A DNA stretch of 51,736 nt, from positions 1-51,736 of the IMG/VR virus record IMGVR_UViG_2737471852_000002; one strand, given 5' to 3'. The notes below the pieces were generated by a model. It was not told where the DNA came from. It ran no database searches and saw only the letters and a program-made list of their open reading frames with translations. This DNA is from a virus (Duplodnaviria; Heunggongvirae; Uroviricota; Caudoviricetes). Positions 14,742 to 37,269 of the stretch are shown one piece after another. Positions within the stretch are counted from its first letter, which is position 1. Every line of letters begins with the position of its first letter. The translations under genes and the position numbers were made by a program.

Positions 14742-15095
14742 TTATGCCTCGCTTGTTACAGTCGTCTGGCCGTAGATTGTGTCAATGGAGGAAGTGAAGG
14801 TGACGCGACGGCTGGTGCCGTCATAATTGGTATCGAAGGAAAGAATCGACAGAACGCCCGGTGTATCCTGTATGCGTTCGCGTATAGCCAGGATGTAGAC
14901 ATCTGATCGCTGCTTCCCAAGCACTGACTGAACATACGGCGTGCCTTCCGTCAGATCGAGAAACCACTGACCGCGCCACAGCTCGAAACGGGTTTTTACG
15001 GCCTGGGCGACACATTCCGGACTGTCGATAAGGAAAGTATCGTCACCCTGGCCGAAAGTGTAATCGCCTTCAGTATCTTCGCGACGGTATCGCAT
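14742..15095 (-). CDS. baseplate protein (gpW / Mu gp46-like)
   Basis: 117-aa ORF immediately upstream of the J-like gene. Confidence 0.55.
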   Translation of the reverse strand: MRYRREDTEGDYTFGQGDDTFLIDSPECVAQAVKTRFELWRGQWFLDLTEGTPYVQSVLGKQRSDVYILAIRERIQDTPGVLSILSFDTNYDGTSRRVTFTSSIDTIYGQTTVTSEA

Positions 15096-15835
15096 TATTG
15101 CGGCCCTCCGGTAGTTCCCCCGCCAGTCTGTACTCCGCCATGTTTATGCGTGGCGACACTGATACCAGAAGCTGTTACGTCATTCGTTACCGTCACCGGC
15201 CCAAGCATCGTCGCAGTACCGCCGCTTTCTCCCATTCCCTGAGACAGGTTACCGTTAATCGTTACGTTGCCGTTCAGCGTGATAGTCGGGGATGTGATTG
15301 TCGTTCCACCCTCAGCCGTAGCCGTAAGCTTGCCCGGCGTTTTAACGGTGATGTTATGCCCTGCTGCGACCTCTACGAACGCCGAGCCATCATCGGTTCG
15401 CAGCTGCGCGGCGCTGGTACTGATACCGCTGATTTTCTGCGCTTGCGACTGCGGGCCAACGATGGCGAACGCATCAGATAAGTCATGCTGGCGCGGGTCG
15501 ACGGTCTCCTGAACGCCGCCGCTCTGCCACCAGAAATCGATGCAACGGTCGGCAAAGATCAGCAGGCACTCGTCGCCTTCTTTTACCGGAAAGGTCAGCG
15601 TGCAACCGCCGCCGCGCGGGAAGATAACCGGCACATCCACCAGCGGTTTTAATTCGGTGGAGCCATCGCCAACAATACCGCGAAGCGCTACCTCTACTGT
15701 GCAGGTAACAGTGTCAGGATCGAACGACTGAATGATGCCGGGCATCGCTACGCGCATCTGGGTAGACACCGAATCGACAATGGCCTGCGCGGTCTGCTGC
15801 TCACCGCCGATCTGTGATTGAGTTGGAATTGGCAT
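15095..15835 (-). CDS. baseplate spike/assembly protein (gpV / Mu gp45-like)
   Basis: 246 aa with Gly/Thr-rich C-terminal repeats (GGTTITSPTITLNGNVTINGN). Confidence 0.55.
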   Translation of the reverse strand: MPIPTQSQIGGEQQTAQAIVDSVSTQMRVAMPGIIQSFDPDTVTCTVEVALRGIVGDGSTELKPLVDVPVIFPRGGGCTLTFPVKEGDECLLIFADRCIDFWWQSGGVQETVDPRQHDLSDAFAIVGPQSQAQKISGISTSAAQLRTDDGSAFVEVAAGHNITVKTPGKLTATAEGGTTITSPTITLNGNVTINGNLSQGMGESGGTATMLGPVTVTNDVTASGISVATHKHGGVQTGGGTTGGPQ

Positions 15836-15845
15836 AAAACCCCCA

Positions 15846-15870
15846 TAAAAAAACCAGCCGAAGCTGGTTT
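15846..15870 (-). terminator. intrinsic terminator (stem ccagc/gctgg with flanking A and T runs)
   Basis: aaaaaaaccagccgaagctggttt; the U-run is strongest on the minus strand. Confidence 0.5.
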
Positions 15871-16057
15871 GGTATCAATTATCTCTTAGTAACTAAGCCA
15901 CATCAGTGTGAAGTAAGGCTTTTCCGCTGCAATGGCACACATTCACAAGGTGTATTAGGATATGTTTGCAACAAGTAAGCATTGAAAATCAATTTCAGCC
16001 ATGAAGCCGCCATAGAGTGGACCTGCACCATCGCATTATTGACTACAGGAGTAACAA

Positions 16058-16348
16058 ATGGGATTTAGATTTCGTAAAAGAATCCGGATTGCGCCCGGAC
16101 TCGCGATCAACATTAGTAAAAGCGGAGTAAGCACTTCAATTGGTGGTAAAGGTTCCACCATTAACATCGGAAAAAAAGGCGTAAAGATGACAAATGGCCT
16201 TCCCGGCACGGGGCTGTCGCATACCACTAACCTTTACTCTCCCGGGAAATCGACAGAAAAAAAACAACTTACTCATAAGCAAAAAATAATTAGAAACATC
16301 CTGTTCGTAATTATTGTGTTTATTATAATTAAAGCTCAATATTTTTGA
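16058..16348 (+). CDS. small membrane-anchored protein (moron), N-terminal domain resembling the family I recall as DUF4236
   Basis: 96 aa; MGFRFRKRIRIAPGLAINISKSGVSTSIGGKGSTINIGKKG then a C-terminal hydrophobic helix; AGGAG RBS; opposite strand to the tail genes. Confidence 0.45.
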   Translation: MGFRFRKRIRIAPGLAINISKSGVSTSIGGKGSTINIGKKGVKMTNGLPGTGLSHTTNLYSPGKSTEKKQLTHKQKIIRNILFVIIVFIIIKAQYF

Positions 16349-16354
16349 CGCATG

Positions 16355-16385
16355 CCCGCCTATCTGGCGGGCTATTTTACTTTTC
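16355..16385 (+). terminator. intrinsic terminator
   Basis: gcccgcc-tatct-ggcgggc followed by tattttacttttc. Confidence 0.6.
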
Positions 16386-16707
16386 GGCAGTCGTATGTTG
16401 CATACTGACGCGGCGAATCCATGCTGGCTTGCAGCCACTGAGCATTCAGGATTGCTTTACCATTACGGCCAATAAACTCCATTCCTACCCATCGCCCTGG
16501 TTGATTGGTCGCTAAGCGCCATTCAATTTTGACGTTGTTATAATCACCGTCATTTTTAAGAAATGTCACTTTTTGCGATTCAGGTTTAGCTCCGTTTACG
16601 CGAGCGAAACCATCATCAGCCCAATGGATTTTGAAATCACCACACTGAGAATCAGCAATAGCTTGGAAAGAAAATAATGCTGCAATGATAAAAATTACGA
16701 GTTTCAC
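16372..16707 (-). CDS. small secreted protein (moron) with signal peptide
   Basis: 111 aa from GTG at 16707 (GAGG RBS); KLVIFIIAALFSFQAIA then DSQCGDF...; inserted between baseplate hub and spike genes. Confidence 0.45.
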   Translation of the reverse strand: MKLVIFIIAALFSFQAIADSQCGDFKIHWADDGFARVNGAKPESQKVTFLKNDGDYNNVKIEWRLATNQPGRWVGMEFIGRNGKAILNAQWLQASMDSPRQYATYDCRKVK

Positions 16708-16717
16708 GTCCCGTACC

Positions 16718-17782
16718 TCAGTAGTTTGTTTTTTGCATAGCACCAGCATTAACTAAATCACGACTGCCACGCGCAAAACACATCAAATCCATGTACCACG
16801 CCTGACCTCTGGTGTCGCCAGTATAGTCGATAGCTTTGACGATATAAACGCCATCTGTCGCAATGCTGGCAGCCTGTGACGTTGTGCCGGTCAGTGCGCG
16901 GTTGCCGTTCTCTTCCGTTTCAGTGATACGACCGGGCGACTGTGCGATTTCGCTATTGCCGAGCGCGGCGCGGTACACCGAAGCCTGATCGAGCTGGATA
17001 AGACCATTAATGCGGATGTTTGGGTTTATCAGGCACCGCACGTTTACGCCGCCGCCCATTGTCTGTTGCGGCATACCGATCAGGCCAGTATTGGCATTCA
17101 ACACAATGGCTTCGTGAATATATTTATCCTCCGGCACCATCTGGACCTGACCATCCACCAGTTGCCATGTCGCTTTGCACTGCGCAGCAATATTATCCAT
17201 CACGTTGCGGCTGGATGAGTAAATCGCGCGGCCACGAGGAAACACGGTATCAGGAAAATCGCCGGTAATGCCCTGTGTCACGCCGAACGCGTTGAAATCC
17301 TGCATCGTCGCCCGGTGCAGATCCGCAACGGTATAGCCAGCGGCAAGCGTGGTGATGGTGGTCGCATAGAGGAACGCTTCGTGATCACCAATGGCCTGAA
17401 TCAACACCCAGGAATCCGTAATGTTGTCCTTCCCGGTGACGGTGAAGCGAATATCACCGTCAAAAATCAGGCCGTAGTTCTGACCGTTCACCTGCCCTAT
17501 CTGGTCTGGTGAAATCTCCCGGGACACACCAACCTGGCTCGCATCAACATCCGGCACTATACCGTCATACCCGGCAATGATGCGAATTTTGGCAAACTCC
17601 TGCCCAAGTATCTTGTTCGTGGTATCGGTCGAAAGGTTGTAAATTTTCACGTTCGCCACGCGTGGCCAGCGTGTGTCTGCCCACTCGATCTGGAACGTGA
17701 CCTTAAAGTCAGACAGGGAAACGCCCTGCCCGTTCTGGTCCAACAGTTGCAGCTCAAAATGGCGCATCCAGTTAAGAGACAT
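16718..17782 (-). CDS. baseplate hub protein (Mu gp44 / gpP-like)
   Basis: 354 aa at the hub position of the Mu-type tail cluster. Confidence 0.55.
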   Translation of the reverse strand: MSLNWMRHFELQLLDQNGQGVSLSDFKVTFQIEWADTRWPRVANVKIYNLSTDTTNKILGQEFAKIRIIAGYDGIVPDVDASQVGVSREISPDQIGQVNGQNYGLIFDGDIRFTVTGKDNITDSWVLIQAIGDHEAFLYATTITTLAAGYTVADLHRATMQDFNAFGVTQGITGDFPDTVFPRGRAIYSSSRNVMDNIAAQCKATWQLVDGQVQMVPEDKYIHEAIVLNANTGLIGMPQQTMGGGVNVRCLINPNIRINGLIQLDQASVYRAALGNSEIAQSPGRITETEENGNRALTGTTSQAASIATDGVYIVKAIDYTGDTRGQAWYMDLMCFARGSRDLVNAGAMQKTNY

Positions 17783-18091: not shown

Positions 18092-18694
18092 TCATCCCCC
18101 GAATGCTGATGTAACGCTTCCGCCCAGCTGGCTCAGCAAGGATTCGTTTGGCGGTGTAGTGGATTTCATCCCGGAATTCTGCACCGCCGATGTGCTGACG
18201 CCATCCTGCATATCTGATTTATCTGCAACGCTAACGCTCTGCGTCTGCGACATGATCACTTCACGCAGGGTAAGCGTGCAGTTCAGCACGTTCTCGCTGG
18301 TTTTATCCGTTGTCACCTCGATGGCTCGCACCAGCATATTGCTGTAAACCCGCTTTCCGGTCACTACATCGAACGGCACCCGAGAGGACTGGAGATCCAG
18401 TAGTTGCTGATAGGTCTCTTTCGGGCTAAGTCCGGCGCTGAGGCCGATTGAAGATGTATCAATGAAGTCCAGCAACGAACCGCCACCAGCGAAGCCGCAT
18501 TCCATTGTGACTTCGCTGGGGCGCTTATACGCATGATCGGCGATGAAGCCCGAAGCGCTATTCGTTGTTGGCTTCTCCACCGGGTGCTCAGTAATTTCGA
18601 GCGCATCAGAATGCTTTTCGGAGACGACCACGCTGGGGATCAGCAGGCCAATTCGCCGGGATTGCTGGCGAAAAATCGCTGATAAAATATCCAT
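18092..18694 (-). CDS. tail protein (Mu gp43 / DNA-circulation-like position)
   Basis: 200-aa ORF directly downstream of the tape measure gene. Confidence 0.45.
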   Translation of the reverse strand: MDILSAIFRQQSRRIGLLIPSVVVSEKHSDALEITEHPVEKPTTNSASGFIADHAYKRPSEVTMECGFAGGGSLLDFIDTSSIGLSAGLSPKETYQQLLDLQSSRVPFDVVTGKRVYSNMLVRAIEVTTDKTSENVLNCTLTLREVIMSQTQSVSVADKSDMQDGVSTSAVQNSGMKSTTPPNESLLSQLGGSVTSAFGG

Positions 18695-20961
18695 TATCTC
18701 GGTCCTGCGGGGAGTTGCTGGGTTAACTGTGAATTCACGCCCTTTTGACGATCAACAGTCAAACGGGCAGCCTCGCGCGGATCGGAAACGCCGTGGATGT
18801 TAATATTCGTTTCCTGCTGAATCACCGGGGCGCTGGTGGGCATGTTGCTCATTACTTTCGGAATGTAGTTACGCGTTTCCTGCGGCATTAACCCCATGCC
18901 ATAGCGCTTAACATTCCCGATCCCCCAGTTATATGATGCCAGTGCTTTGCTAAGGTCTCCGCCGTTCTGCCGCAACAGCTGGCTGAGGTACTTAGCTGCG
19001 GCCTGAGCTGACTTTTGCGGGTCGAATACATCGTTTCCGCGAAGGCCCATGTCGCGCGCCGTACCATCCATAAACTGAAACAGACCTTTCGCGCCTGCGC
19101 CGGACATGGCGAACTGGTTACCACCTGACTCGGTTATCGCCACACTTTTCAATAGACCAGCTGGAAGTTGATAAAGCGACTCAAGTTTATTGAACATTGG
19201 CCCCATCCAGTCGAGCAATACTTTGCCCTGGGCTGTGGCCTGTGGACGTTTGACTGATTGCGCAAACTGGGAGGGGTCACCCGATATATTTGGAGAGATT
19301 TCAGCAGCTCCAACCGGGGAGAAAAATAAATTACCGATTTTGGCAATCCCGTCTGAGATTTTTTCAAGATAACCATTAGCAGCCTGCTGACGGTTTTTTA
19401 TTTCATCTCTTTCATGCGGGGCAATTTCATTACTACGAACATGCTGTTCCGCCCCGGGAATGTCAGGCTGAACATTATCGCCATAAACGACGCCATTGCT
19501 TTGCGCCTGACGAATAATCTTACCTGGGCCACCATGCAGCCAATCCATCCATGCGGGCCATTCTCTTACCTCGCTAACATCTTTTCGCCCAAGGTCGGTT
19601 TTGATGCCAACCGTAGCAAGAGCATCACCAATGTTCCTTTTGGTATAGTCCAAAGATGATTTAGCACTGGCTTTTATGTTTTCACGATCTGAAACCAGGT
19701 AACCAGCATACGCTCCCCATAATTTAAGCCATGGAGGTATCGGAAGACCGGATATTTTTGCGAATGCTCCCAATACTTTTGTTACCCATACCCCAGCGAT
19801 GAAAGTAGCCAAAATTTCCAGCGAGTTCTGCCATCCACCAACAGAATCTTTCAGCCCCAGAAGCTTATCGCGCAGCCAGAGAATTGCCTTTTTCGCCTTT
19901 TCTATTGCAGGCTCCCACTTGGACCAGTCAATCAGGCTTTTACCGCCTTCTTTCCACGTCTGATAATCGTCATAGAGTAATCCGATCGCCAGAATCAGCG
20001 TGGTGATAATTCCAATCGGGGATTTCAGGAACGCAGAATTAAGCAGACGCCATGCGACAAGTAGAGCACCGAATATTTTCAGCAGATTTTTACTGCCATC
20101 GTCAAGACGCTTCCACCAGTCGATGACAGAGCCAGCGCCCTGTATCAGCCGCCACGCCATTCTCGTGAATGCGTTCGCAAGCCAGATCACGCCTTTAATA
20201 ACTCTGGTCAGCGTCTCTTCAATCTTCGGGAAATTGTCGAGGATGCGCCGCCGCAGGCTGTCCAGCGAACCAGCCAGGCCACCAGCGAGGTTTGAGCCGA
20301 TCTTGTCCCGCATGATGCCGAACAGCGACGTAAGCCCGCGCATGGACGTCATGAATTTGTTGGACTGAACAGCCGCTTTATCAGCGTTGAACCCTGTCTT
20401 TTGCAGCATCGACTGGTAATCGGCGGTAAAGCCATTCATGCCGCGCCGCATCGCCATCAGCGTGTTTTCATCGATGCCAAGCATCTGCGCGTATTGTTTC
20501 GCGCGGTAATACGGCATGTTGTTGAGCTTTTGCCCAACGCCAGTAAAGATGGCCGCAGTATCACGCATCTTTCCGCTGGCATCGCGAGTCTGGACGCCCA
20601 GGCGGTTCAGGAAGCCTTCCGCGCCCGGATTGCTACGCATGAAACCGGCCAGCCCTTCGAGGGAGGACATAGCCGACTCGGCGCTGGCACCGGTTTGCGA
20701 TGCGGCGTATCCCAGCGCTTTGATGCCCTGGACACTGGCCCCCGTCCGCTGGGATGCCCAGTAAATTTTATCCAGACCGTTCGCGATCTGAGTGGTAAAT
20801 CCGACAATGCTCAGCGCTGCGCCTTCCACCACCGCGCCGACCTTCAGAACGTTAGCTGTAACGCCTTTCAGCACGGCTTCAAACTTATTAGCGCCAGCCT
20901 GATCGATATCGAATCCCAGCGAAACAAGGAAATCTTTAATCGTATCTGCGTTACCGCTCAT
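18694..20961 (-). CDS. tail tape measure protein with lytic transglycosylase (SLT) motif
   Basis: 755 aa; ...VAITESGGNQFAMSGAGAKGLFQFMDGTARDMGL... soluble lytic transglycosylase signature; hydrophobic segments; downstream of the chaperone/frameshift site. Confidence 0.85.
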   Translation of the reverse strand: MSGNADTIKDFLVSLGFDIDQAGANKFEAVLKGVTANVLKVGAVVEGAALSIVGFTTQIANGLDKIYWASQRTGASVQGIKALGYAASQTGASAESAMSSLEGLAGFMRSNPGAEGFLNRLGVQTRDASGKMRDTAAIFTGVGQKLNNMPYYRAKQYAQMLGIDENTLMAMRRGMNGFTADYQSMLQKTGFNADKAAVQSNKFMTSMRGLTSLFGIMRDKIGSNLAGGLAGSLDSLRRRILDNFPKIEETLTRVIKGVIWLANAFTRMAWRLIQGAGSVIDWWKRLDDGSKNLLKIFGALLVAWRLLNSAFLKSPIGIITTLILAIGLLYDDYQTWKEGGKSLIDWSKWEPAIEKAKKAILWLRDKLLGLKDSVGGWQNSLEILATFIAGVWVTKVLGAFAKISGLPIPPWLKLWGAYAGYLVSDRENIKASAKSSLDYTKRNIGDALATVGIKTDLGRKDVSEVREWPAWMDWLHGGPGKIIRQAQSNGVVYGDNVQPDIPGAEQHVRSNEIAPHERDEIKNRQQAANGYLEKISDGIAKIGNLFFSPVGAAEISPNISGDPSQFAQSVKRPQATAQGKVLLDWMGPMFNKLESLYQLPAGLLKSVAITESGGNQFAMSGAGAKGLFQFMDGTARDMGLRGNDVFDPQKSAQAAAKYLSQLLRQNGGDLSKALASYNWGIGNVKRYGMGLMPQETRNYIPKVMSNMPTSAPVIQQETNINIHGVSDPREAARLTVDRQKGVNSQLTQQLPAGPR

Positions 20962-33806: not shown

Positions 33807-34083
33807 CCGCAACAGCAGCCTTGATATCGTTCTCGGTTCTCTGTGACTCCAGTGCGATCTGCTGCCTGGCATATTGATTTGTCTCCAGAATGATGTTCGT
33901 TATTGCTACGGTGCGCAGGACATTCGCGGTGATGGTCTCAAAGGAATCAGCGCGCTGTTCTGCATCGTCAGCGCGCCGCTGTTCCTCCAGAAACTTTCCA
34001 TGGTAATGATTCGCTGACCAGACAAGACCACCAGCAATACAAGCAATAAACGTTAAAATGAGCGCCCAATAACTCATCTTCAT
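33691..34083 (-). CDS. Rz: i-spanin (Rz-like)
   Basis: 130 aa, N-terminal TM helix then charged coiled coil; ATGA overlap with endolysin stop. Confidence 0.65.
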   Translation of the reverse strand: MKMSYWALILTFIACIAGGLVWSANHYHGKFLEEQRRADDAEQRADSFETITANVLRTVAITNIILETNQYARQQIALESQRTENDIKAAVADDDCAVRVVPAGAVKRLHEYANGLRAGSGSSVTSQPDG

Positions 34084-34694
34084 ACCAGCAGCGCCGCCCG
34101 CGCCTTGTTGTATCGGACCTTACGATCCTCAATACCGTTCAGACCGCCGTTAATGATGCGAGTAACACGATTAATATCGGCACCGTAGATCATGCAGCCT
34201 TTAGAGGTGTAGAACCATGCAGCTGAGCGCGCAGCCTGTAGTTCCTGTTCCAGTTGTTCAGGTGAAGTCACCAAATCTAACTTCAGAGCAGCCCCGCAGG
34301 TGCGATAATTGTCGAGGCCAGTGATTTGAATTAACCCTCTGCCGCGATATTTCCAGCCGTCGCCGGGCGCTTTGTTACCCAGGCGGTTGCTATACACCAG
34401 ATTGGCGATAGCATCCTGGCGGGCTGCGTGTTCGGTTGTTCTGCCAAGCGCATCAGCCTGCTGCTGTGTGATCCTCTTTCCGAAGGTCGCCACCAGCGCA
34501 GATGGTGTGTAGTTCAAATTTTCAACTACAGCGCTAAAGCCGCCTGACTCATGACCTACCTGAGCGATGAACATGGCCTGATCCGCGGGTGCTGTAATGC
34601 CGAATTCTTTCATCGCTGCATCTACTGGTTGAAACCAGCGCACAGCCAGTCCGGCGCTGATACCAGCCGCCTTTTGAAATAATTGTTGGTTCAT
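34080..34694 (-). CDS. endolysin, glycoside hydrolase family 19-like (chitinase-type lysozyme)
   Basis: 204 aa; FIAQVGHESGGF ... KYRGRGLIQITG motifs. Confidence 0.8.
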   Translation of the reverse strand: MNQQLFQKAAGISAGLAVRWFQPVDAAMKEFGITAPADQAMFIAQVGHESGGFSAVVENLNYTPSALVATFGKRITQQQADALGRTTEHAARQDAIANLVYSNRLGNKAPGDGWKYRGRGLIQITGLDNYRTCGAALKLDLVTSPEQLEQELQAARSAAWFYTSKGCMIYGADINRVTRIINGGLNGIEDRKVRYNKARAALLV

Positions 34695-34975
34695 TAGTGC
34701 CTCAGATGATCAACCAGGCGTGCAACGTTGCCTCTGACGGCCACCAGCACGGAAAGAAAAATAGTATTCGCCACGATAATGGGCCATGAGGAATGGGGAT
34801 AAATCCCACAGAGATAGGCCAACGGAACAGCACTGTATGTAACAGTAATCAGCCAGGCTAAACGTGAAACCCAAGGACGATGCCGCGAATCACCACGACG
34901 ATAAAACATCAGAGTAATAACAACACAAGCACATAACAGCGCGTTTATAGTTGCTGTCGGGTCATTTAGCTCCAC
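34694..34975 (-). CDS. membrane protein of the lysis cassette (antiholin or second holin)
   Basis: 93 aa with about 3 hydrophobic helices between holin and endolysin. Confidence 0.45.
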   Translation of the reverse strand: MELNDPTATINALLCACVVITLMFYRRGDSRHRPWVSRLAWLITVTYSAVPLAYLCGIYPHSSWPIIVANTIFLSVLVAVRGNVARLVDHLRH

Positions 34976-35348
34976 CTGAACCTCCCCGGCGCGTTATGAG
35001 CGCCACCAGCGACCCGATATCCTGATTATTCAGGAACGTCAGGATCTTAACGGCTAAAGCAGATACGATTACGGCACCAATGGCATCCAGAGGTTTATCA
35101 CTGTATCCGGTCAAGCTTGCCAGCTTGGAGCCAACCAACCCAGAGCAAAGGATCCCGGCAATATACGACACGATAAAATATGCCAGTCGGCGCGATGCGC
35201 TCAGATCCGCTGCTGTTGCTATGTAGAATACAGCCCCTGCAAATGCGCCAAATACAACGCCGTAATCAGTTCCGGTCAGCAGTCCATAAACACTGGCACC
35301 CGTCAGGGCACCACCAGCCAGCCCAGTACCGGAAATTGGATCGGACAT
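34962..35348 (-). CDS. holin
   Basis: 128 aa with Gly/Ala-rich TM helices and charged C-terminus; first gene of the lysis cassette. Confidence 0.6.
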   Translation of the reverse strand: MSDPISGTGLAGGALTGASVYGLLTGTDYGVVFGAFAGAVFYIATAADLSASRRLAYFIVSYIAGILCSGLVGSKLASLTGYSDKPLDAIGAVIVSALAVKILTFLNNQDIGSLVALITRRGGSGGAK

Positions 35349-36486: not shown

Positions 36487-37269
36487 TTACCGCGTTATCT
36501 GCTTAAGCTGTTTTTCGGCCCAGGACTCTTCGATATCAAATTTCGTGATCAGCAGGTCGTAGAATGGCTTAACAGACTTTTTCCAGGTGTCCAGGCTAAT
36601 GGCGTCAGTAATCTGGCATACAGCAGCATAGGCTTCAGTCGACGGAAGTCGTTCATACCCACGCCCTCCGCAGCGCTTACAGTCAGCCAGAACAGGAACG
36701 CCCTGTTTCTCAGTAAGAGCCTGGTTCACTGCCTTGCCGCGCCCATGGCAATCACTGCAAGAAGCACTAACCACACCAGAGCCATTACACTTTTTGCATA
36801 GCACTTTGATGGATTCTTTGACCTTCACCATCCCGGACACGGTCATTTTCCCTTCTGGCTTACGGAATTTATTGGTAAACACGTCAGCCTCAATGAAGCC
36901 CTGACCGTCACAACAATCGCACTGCTTCACGCTGGCAGCGCTGCGGGAATAGTCCTCAAAAGCGAAGGTGGCCAACTGGTGCATCACCTGAGGTTTAACC
37001 GCGGCACCGAGCTTACGCAGTGCGGCAACCTTGTCGCATTTTGTCATCGCGTACTCAGCCAGCAGACCGATCGCCCGATCCCGGTCGTTATTGCTTATGC
37101 CCATCTTGCCGAGGAAGGCGCTGTAACCCATTGCGGCGCGTTCCTGCGTCATGCCCATGGCAGCCATTATGTCGGTACCGGTCAGTGAATCGGAGGCGGT
37201 AGCGCGCGGAGAATCGCTAATCAGTGTGGATTTAGCGAAGTGGTATTTCACTGTGTTTTCAAGGTTCAT
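36487..37269 (-). CDS. late-gene antiterminator Q-like protein
   Basis: 260 aa with Cys-rich zinc-binding region (CDCCDGQGF...CKKCNGSG...CSDCHGRG...CKRCGGRG); position between nin/rusA region and lysis genes. Confidence 0.75.
   Translation of the reverse strand: MNLENTVKYHFAKSTLISDSPRATASDSLTGTDIMAAMGMTQERAAMGYSAFLGKMGISNNDRDRAIGLLAEYAMTKCDKVAALRKLGAAVKPQVMHQLATFAFEDYSRSAASVKQCDCCDGQGFIEADVFTNKFRKPEGKMTVSGMVKVKESIKVLCKKCNGSGVVSASCSDCHGRGKAVNQALTEKQGVPVLADCKRCGGRGYERLPSTEAYAAVCQITDAISLDTWKKSVKPFYDLLITKFDIEESWAEKQLKQITR

Follow-up and report, generated by a model that had tools for sequence, protein, structure and literature searches.

A conserved exported-protein gene and a hypervariable cargo slot holding a DUF4236 gene at the hub–spike junction of a prophage tail operon

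The interval at positions 15836–16717 of IMG/VR virus record IMGVR_UViG_2737471852_000002, a 51,736-nucleotide (nt) stretch of Caudoviricetes DNA that was analysed as a whole (the window), separates the baseplate hub gene from the central spike gene of a contractile tail operon. It carries two convergent genes, one encoding a DUF4236 protein on the plus strand and one encoding an exported protein, here called sec, on the minus strand. Comparison with related loci gives good support to the view that this junction, in a myophage tail operon under Q control, is an accessory locus built of two layers and not a single moron: sec forms a fixed layer behind the hub, and the DUF4236 gene occupies a slot of interchangeable cargo between sec and a predicted backbone terminator. 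A preliminary description of the DNA had reported two convergent open reading frames (ORFs) between hub and spike, one of 96 amino acids on the plus strand and one of 111 on the minus strand, and both exist as described. The features referred to below are the following.

15095–15835, minus strand: central spike gene, the downstream backbone flank; Pfam spike N-terminal domain (E 8.9e-42) and GpV Apex motif.
15851–15870, minus strand (tail strand): predicted intrinsic terminator of the backbone; its T-run abuts the Shine-Dalgarno sequence and ATG of the spike gene.
15871–16057, plus strand: cargo-specific non-coding spacer of 187 nt located 5' of the DUF4236 gene; presumed promoter region.
16058–16348, plus strand: DUF4236 cargo gene, 96 amino acids, antisense to the tail operon; PF14020 domain, linker and C-terminal membrane helix.
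16354–16372, plus strand: predicted intrinsic terminator of the DUF4236 gene, cargo-borne, overlapping the sec stop codon.
16372–16707, minus strand: sec, an accessory gene conserved in the tail operon; exported protein of 111 amino acids with a signal peptide.
16718–17782, minus strand: baseplate hub gene, the upstream backbone flank; PHROG 196 'baseplate hub' (E 4e-82), with a weak match to Pfam E217_GP41.
36487–37269, minus strand: Q-type late antiterminator gene; Pfam PF03589 Antiterm (E 2.2e-45).

The cargo slot is most clearly delimited within Escherichia coli, for which complete genomes were compared by megablast. The hub and spike backbone was found in 53 genomes, only 22 of which match the window across the whole interval. 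In near-identical prophages the same place is taken by a Phd/Doc pair (RefSeq annotation), a 116-residue antisense gene or a 53-residue ORF, and sec still lies directly after the hub in these prophages with alternative cargo. The DNA comparison sets the cassette boundaries at about 15858, inside the stem of the left hairpin, and at about 16387, within the last four codons of sec, where the encoded protein reads CRKVK in the window and CVKVK in the others. The DUF4236 cassette (15871–16371) is present as a single copy in 19 of 5426 complete E. coli genomes, all among the 53 with this backbone, and is 98–99.8% identical even where the flanks are only about 93% identical. Higher conservation of the cassette than of its flanks is as expected of a unit exchanged between diverged backbones. 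E. coli E89 (NZ_CP121157.1) holds two related prophages, one at about 2.837 Mb with the 116-residue antisense gene (locus L003) and one at about 3.286 Mb with the DUF4236 cassette.

A wider survey, in which one genome per species was scanned by hub alignment, yielded 67 Enterobacterales loci with 44–97% hub identity; unless stated otherwise, counts of related loci given here are based on 68 non-redundant loci. The space from sec to spike in these loci contains 111 ORFs that fall into 61 clusters, the majority without annotation. Among those that could be assigned are a YafO toxin, Mrr-type (Mrr_cat) nucleases, a T5orf172 protein and several envelope proteins. A homologue of PD-Lambda-1 (E 2.8e-82, with a T5orf172 domain) occupies the slot in Pantoea dispersa and Dryocola (L025 2830–4059 and L043), and the candidate defence system PDC-S42 (E 1.7e-36) is found in the same slot in Pantoea ananatis (L022). 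The comparison shows the segment from the sec stop codon to the predicted backbone terminator to be a hypervariable slot in which toxin-antitoxin, defence and envelope genes replace one another, DUF4236 being one of many alternative cargoes downstream of sec.

The sec gene behaves differently from this cargo. Its start lies 10 nt past the hub stop codon, with GAGG 8 nt upstream, and the GTG start is annotated identically by RefSeq in an E. coli prophage that is 97.6% identical. Whatever the cargo, sec is found directly behind the hub, abutting or overlapping its stop codon, even in relatives whose hubs are as little as about 50% identical; in about 53 of the 65 loci having both flanks, a homologue is located between −85 and +19 nt relative to the hub stop codon. 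Eight loci have no other gene than sec between hub and spike (L015, L047, L051, L052, L054, L056, L058 and L073). Distant homologues chosen by sequence alone, from Pantoea (47% identity) and from an E. coli lineage (58%), show the same synteny. The six loci with the most diverged hubs lack the gene, and only 15–61 nt separate their hub and spike genes. DUF4236 co-occurs with sec in 2 of the roughly 53 sec-bearing loci of the species survey. Taken together, the comparison shows that sec was acquired long ago and has become a fixed accessory part of the tail operon; it is not mobile cargo. Both genes are under purifying selection (nonsynonymous divergence 0.12–0.6, synonymous divergence saturated).

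Other exported proteins are also encoded at this position. A lipoprotein related to the one fused to sec in some relatives, but without the barrel (both described below), occupies the post-hub position in L017 (5068–6207), L031 and L068, and the exported proteins found at the sec position in L017, phage yong1 and Burkholderia phage BgManors32 are unrelated to sec. In BgManors32, whose hub is 31% identical, the exported-protein gene (L087 3993–4451) lies antisense between hub and spike. The hub–spike junction thus seems to attract insertions well beyond the Enterobacterales.

The preliminary description had placed hairpin terminators at 15846–15870 and 16355–16385 as the bounds of a moron, and these coordinates are approximately right. 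The right hairpin, on the plus strand at 16354–16372, is cassette-specific; it reads GCCCGCC-TATCT-GGCGGGC, with 7 G-C pairs, and is followed by TATTTTACTT. The alternative antisense cargo of L003 likewise has a terminator at this site, but one of a different sequence. The left hairpin belongs to the backbone and is found without cargo. Read on the minus strand from 15870 to 15851, it consists of AAACCAGC-TTCG-GCTGGTTT followed by TTTTATGGGGG; the stem has 8 pairs, after which comes TTTTATGG. A local terminator scan did not rise above chance (5 sites, compared with 3.5 ± 1.9 in shuffled sequences), and the significance of the hairpin derives instead from its conservation across loci. Under a strict scan, a hairpin with a T-run lies no more than 90 nt from the spike start in 53 of the 68 loci, the background rate in these loci being 0.12 per kilobase, and a looser pattern recovers the pre-spike hairpin in at least 55 distinct sequences. 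Its general type is AACCCGC-loop-GCGGGTT plus T-run, and the stems vary in a compensatory manner (ACCCGC/GCGGGT, ACCTGC/GCAGGT, AGCCGC/GCGGCT and CCCACC/GGTGGG, with ACCAGC/GCTGGT in the window). The hairpin is present in a locus without cargo (L073) and in loci with neither cargo nor sec (L066, L067 and L070). By this comparison the predicted left terminator is a conserved backbone element and is not borne by the insertion. In cargo-less phages the pre-spike terminator might act as an attenuator or mark the 3' end of an mRNA. A search for a small RNA on the minus strand that would end at the 15851–15870 terminator gave nothing convincing; matches of the spacer to Rfam isrK and Trp-leader (22–23 bits) are far below threshold, overlie the terminator hairpin and probably reflect it only.

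The window prophage combines lambdoid late control (Q, holin and GH19 endolysin) with an E217/Mu-type contractile tail (genes at 36487–37269, 34962–35348, 34080–34694 and 18694–20961). The holin, the endolysin and all structural genes lie downstream of the Q gene on the same strand, and the tape measure bears an SLT transglycosylase domain. Since the phage encodes a Q antiterminator, the backbone terminator probably insulates the tail genes from cargo transcription. During lytic growth, Q-modified polymerase would read through the terminator, and sec would be co-transcribed with the late tail genes from its place directly behind the hub. In the lysogen, unmodified polymerase starting from cargo promoters would stop at the terminator before reaching the spike gene. 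Cargo genes could in this way be active while the tail genes stay off, and the junction would serve as a safe landing pad.

For the 96-residue protein, the DUF4236 identity and the C-terminal transmembrane helix given in the preliminary description were borne out. Pfam DUF4236 (PF14020) matches residues 3–55 over profile positions 1–54 of 55, with 73.6 bits against a gathering cut-off of 27 (E 1.8e-20); it is the sole match in a Pfam scan at E 0.01, which revealed no homology to HK97 gp15 or YebO, and an NCBIfam search returned no match. AlphaFold2 models a six-strand beta meander followed by a membrane helix at residues 73–95, which corresponds to the C-terminal hydrophobic stretch IIRNILFVIIVFIIIKAQYF. 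Residues 1–76 contain 15 lysines or arginines and a single acidic residue. Family members are about 95–108 residues long and share this layout: the N-terminal domain of 55 residues is conserved, the linker varies, and a hydrophobic helix lies at the C-terminus; Vibrio variants carry an SH3_3 domain C-terminal to the membrane helix, which fits a topology with the N-terminus inside and the C-terminus outside. From the basic charge, the membrane helix, the family layout and the Vibrio variants, we infer a tail-anchored inner-membrane protein whose very basic beta-meander domain would lie in the cytoplasm. The best structural alignments of the meander, which is open, are to porin-like sheets.

The genomic context was looked up for ten DUF4236 family members, and in seven the gene is inside a phage tail cluster. 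Four of the ten are in the same hub–spike slot, all antisense (two in Klebsiella, one in Hafnia and one in E. coli); in the species survey, a Serratia locus (L018) likewise has an antisense DUF4236 gene in this slot. In all, six alleles occupy the slot, diverged to 52–85% identity. The spacer at 15871–16057 lacks conservation in the cassettes of Serratia and Klebsiella, with which it shares only an AGGAG Shine-Dalgarno sequence and the adjoining TTGACTAC; in the window this spacer also contains a 42-residue minus-strand ORF (15903–16031). The other three genes inside tail clusters are in those of unrelated siphophages: in Pseudomonas syringae the gene separates K from I, in Leclercia the tape measure from M, and in a metagenomic phage (L094) the tail chaperone from the tape measure.

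The recurrent location of small DUF4236 membrane proteins in tail clusters suggests, by analogy, a block of DNA entry like that exerted by HK97 gp15. The latter (Cumby et al. 2012, reviewed in PMC3594210) is a superinfection-exclusion protein, small and located in the inner membrane, whose block of genome entry depends on the incoming phage's tail region. Its gene is a moron flanked by those for the tail chaperone and the tape measure, exactly the position of the L094 allele of DUF4236. Both are small proteins, single-pass in the inner membrane (for DUF4236 by prediction), and each is encoded by an addition inside a tail operon that deviates in G+C content from the neighbouring genes. The gp15 protein is related to YebO and shares no sequence relationship with the DUF4236 protein, which differs further in its C-terminal anchor, its 55-residue beta-meander domain and the antisense orientation of its gene in the window. 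We regard gp15 as the best functional analogy, with no homology claimed. On this model, the most likely one for its function, the prophage-expressed DUF4236 protein would block entry of an incoming phage genome at the cytoplasmic membrane.

The product of sec has the canonical signal peptide attributed to it in the preliminary description. Its N-terminus, MKLVIFIIAALFSFQAIA|DSQC, displays an n-h-c pattern and an AxA cleavage site, as read from the alignment; homologues keep the hydrophobic core, and A18 at position −1 is nearly invariant (AIA|D). Two cysteines, C22 and C107, are unchanged across 44 homologues and presumably form a disulfide bond. The predicted structure, with a predicted local distance difference test score of 85, is an 8-stranded up-and-down beta-barrel. 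The family has few members, with 89 clusters at 90% identity and 66 representatives in a set of 1.8 billion proteins; its named members are all from Enterobacterales, and it corresponds to PHROG 3443, for which no function is annotated. Searches of sec against Pfam, NCBIfam and PADLOC returned no match. In some relatives the sec barrel follows an N-terminal lipoprotein domain of about 170 residues (P0211 and P0227, with lipoboxes LSGC and LVSC; L014 5099–5989 and L024 5075–5941).

Avidins are among the best fold matches of sec, and a local match to residues 66–100 of chicken avidin (strands 5–7) extends over 35 columns with the motif (E/C)FIxRNGKxxLxxxWL. We do not assign sec to the avidins, the scores being marginal and local (hhalign 47%, single-chain avidins at E about 0.3 by hmmsearch/hhalign) with the N-terminal half unaligned. 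Biotin binding is likewise unsupported: the tryptophan that lines up with the biotin contact W97 of avidin lacks conservation among sec homologues. Divergence of sec tracks that of the hub best (rho 0.55), and a partner sought through co-divergence with a non-adjacent tail protein did not emerge, sec following only its hub neighbour, as simple linkage predicts.

Known exported phage proteins such as T4 Spackle and T5 Llp neutralise tail lysozyme or mask receptors. Cor is another exported phage protein of this kind (PMC3594210). Like these, sec is exported and phage-encoded, and it is encoded beside the tail-tip genes with which co-evolution would be needed; it differs from them in being a soluble barrel, a lipoprotein in some variants only, and in its predicted co-transcription with the late tail genes. 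The fixed place of sec beside hub and spike leads us to propose, with low confidence and by analogy, that it is a periplasmic factor acting on homologous tails or on their target. Following the logic of Spackle and Llp, its most likely role would be that of a periplasmic binder that neutralises an envelope-crossing part of homologous tails or masks their target.

While the architecture and evolutionary history of the locus are well supported, the functions proposed for both proteins are inferred. For the whole two-layer explanation, which joins a fixed sec, a cargo slot, insulation by the terminator, an entry block by DUF4236 and an anti-tail role of sec, we consider the balance to be slightly favourable. 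Several observations weigh against parts of it. The spacer and its left flank (15836–16057) contain no plus-strand sigma-70 site matching at least 9 of 12 positions, the best reaching 7–8 of 12. In several relatives sec is packed against the spike gene with no terminator between them, so the terminator is not indispensable. The fold of the DUF4236 protein is not diagnostic, and neither this protein nor sec was matched by PADLOC models at E 0.1. Three of the ten sampled DUF4236 contexts are outside phage tails. Morons in general tend to lie in tail regions, so the tail location may reflect a landing-site bias and carry no functional clue.

The moron concept reportedly goes back to Juhala and Hendrix in 2000. 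The preliminary description had read both genes as one such element, bounded by terminators, inserted as a unit and expressed from the prophage as conversion or exclusion cargo. Low G+C content in both genes is consistent with this reading (0.39 for DUF4236, 0.43 for sec and 0.41 for the upstream spacer, against 0.53 for the hub and 0.58 for the spike), as are the hairpins flanking the pair and the adjacency of hub and spike in the most distant relatives, by which both genes were once additions. The description fits the DUF4236 cassette, which shows patchy presence at one site, deviating G+C content, antisense orientation and its own terminator. It fails for sec, whose presence and absence vary only in the distant sense that it is gone from the six most diverged hubs. 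That sec is kept in place whatever the cargo, stands as the sole insert in eight loci, has the orientation of the hub and starts just past its stop codon all argue against joint insertion, as do the homology break in the last four sec codons and not at the hub, the backbone nature of the left terminator, and the finding that sec and DUF4236 do not move together. A single insertion of both genes is accordingly very unlikely. A place for one of the two proteins, or for both, in the virion or in tail assembly could be argued from the location of the genes within the baseplate cluster and from the wide conservation of sec and its apparent co-transcription with the hub; we consider it extremely improbable. 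When related tail clusters were compared, as the preliminary description had advised, sec proved to be conserved in most of them, a result that in part goes against the moron reading; yet the protein is exported, which argues against a tail component, and it is missing from distant relatives whose baseplate genes are otherwise complete, so it is not structural. The cleavable signal peptide, the lipoprotein variants and the periplasmic-type cysteine pair point the same way, and the DUF4236 gene is antisense and found in a minority of loci. In addition, the structure paper on phage E217 places hub gp41 and tip gp43 in the virion and does not mention gp42.

Two further alternatives concern function. 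DUF4236 could be an abortive-infection or toxin-like effector whose beta-meander, on a phage cue, oligomerises at the inner membrane so that the membrane potential collapses. A small membrane-anchored protein with an open meander aligning best to porin-like sheets would suit such a role, and the slot elsewhere holds toxin-antitoxin and defence genes. The cassette, however, includes no partner antitoxin gene, PADLOC gave no match, and the tail-tip and tape-measure neighbours in unrelated phages are more typical of entry exclusion (PMC3594210); we judge an effector of this type to be unlikely. As for sec, it could be a periplasmic inhibitor, similar to PliC/MliC or Ivy, of the SLT lytic transglycosylase in the phage's own tape measure, protecting infected or lysogenic cells from damage to their walls by homologous tails. 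This is quite unlikely: sec has no Pfam MliC match at E 0.01, which speaks against PliC/MliC membership, avidin-type barrels score higher, and in Klebsiella L078 sec accompanies a tape-measure gene with no recorded SLT match.

Temperate phages, P2 and P4 among them, are known to contain variable hotspots of defence and accessory genes, and a moron is generally said to come with a terminator of its own. The slot described here resembles such hotspots in its fixed boundaries, its interchangeable cargo that includes toxin-antitoxin and defence genes, and a cassette more conserved than the backbone. It differs from the usual ones in lying mid-baseplate, between hub and spike, and in being closed by a backbone terminator that pre-exists in cargo-less relatives. 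The locus is thus a well-bounded case of a known phenomenon, the moron or defence hotspot of temperate phages. What is modestly new is the conserved intra-operon terminator that closes the slot and the recurrent tail-tip association of DUF4236, an uncharacterised membrane protein family.

More tentatively, and with rather more doubt than confidence, one could envisage DUF4236 as a widespread superinfection-exclusion family embedded in the tail clusters of both contractile and non-contractile phages, the sec barrel as a new class of periplasmic anti-tail protein, and the pre-spike terminator as an insulator that makes the junction a landing pad for defence genes. If true, this would provide a first function for DUF4236, a Pfam family on which hardly anything has been published (one incidental mention was found in the library searched), and a first function for the secreted, Enterobacterales-restricted family PHROG 3443. 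The use of a terminator as insulator would, if true, be a simple design rule for constitutively expressed prophage cargo inside a late operon. The sharply bounded hotspot for defence and accessory genes within the baseplate genes of common enterobacterial prophages can be mined for new defence genes.
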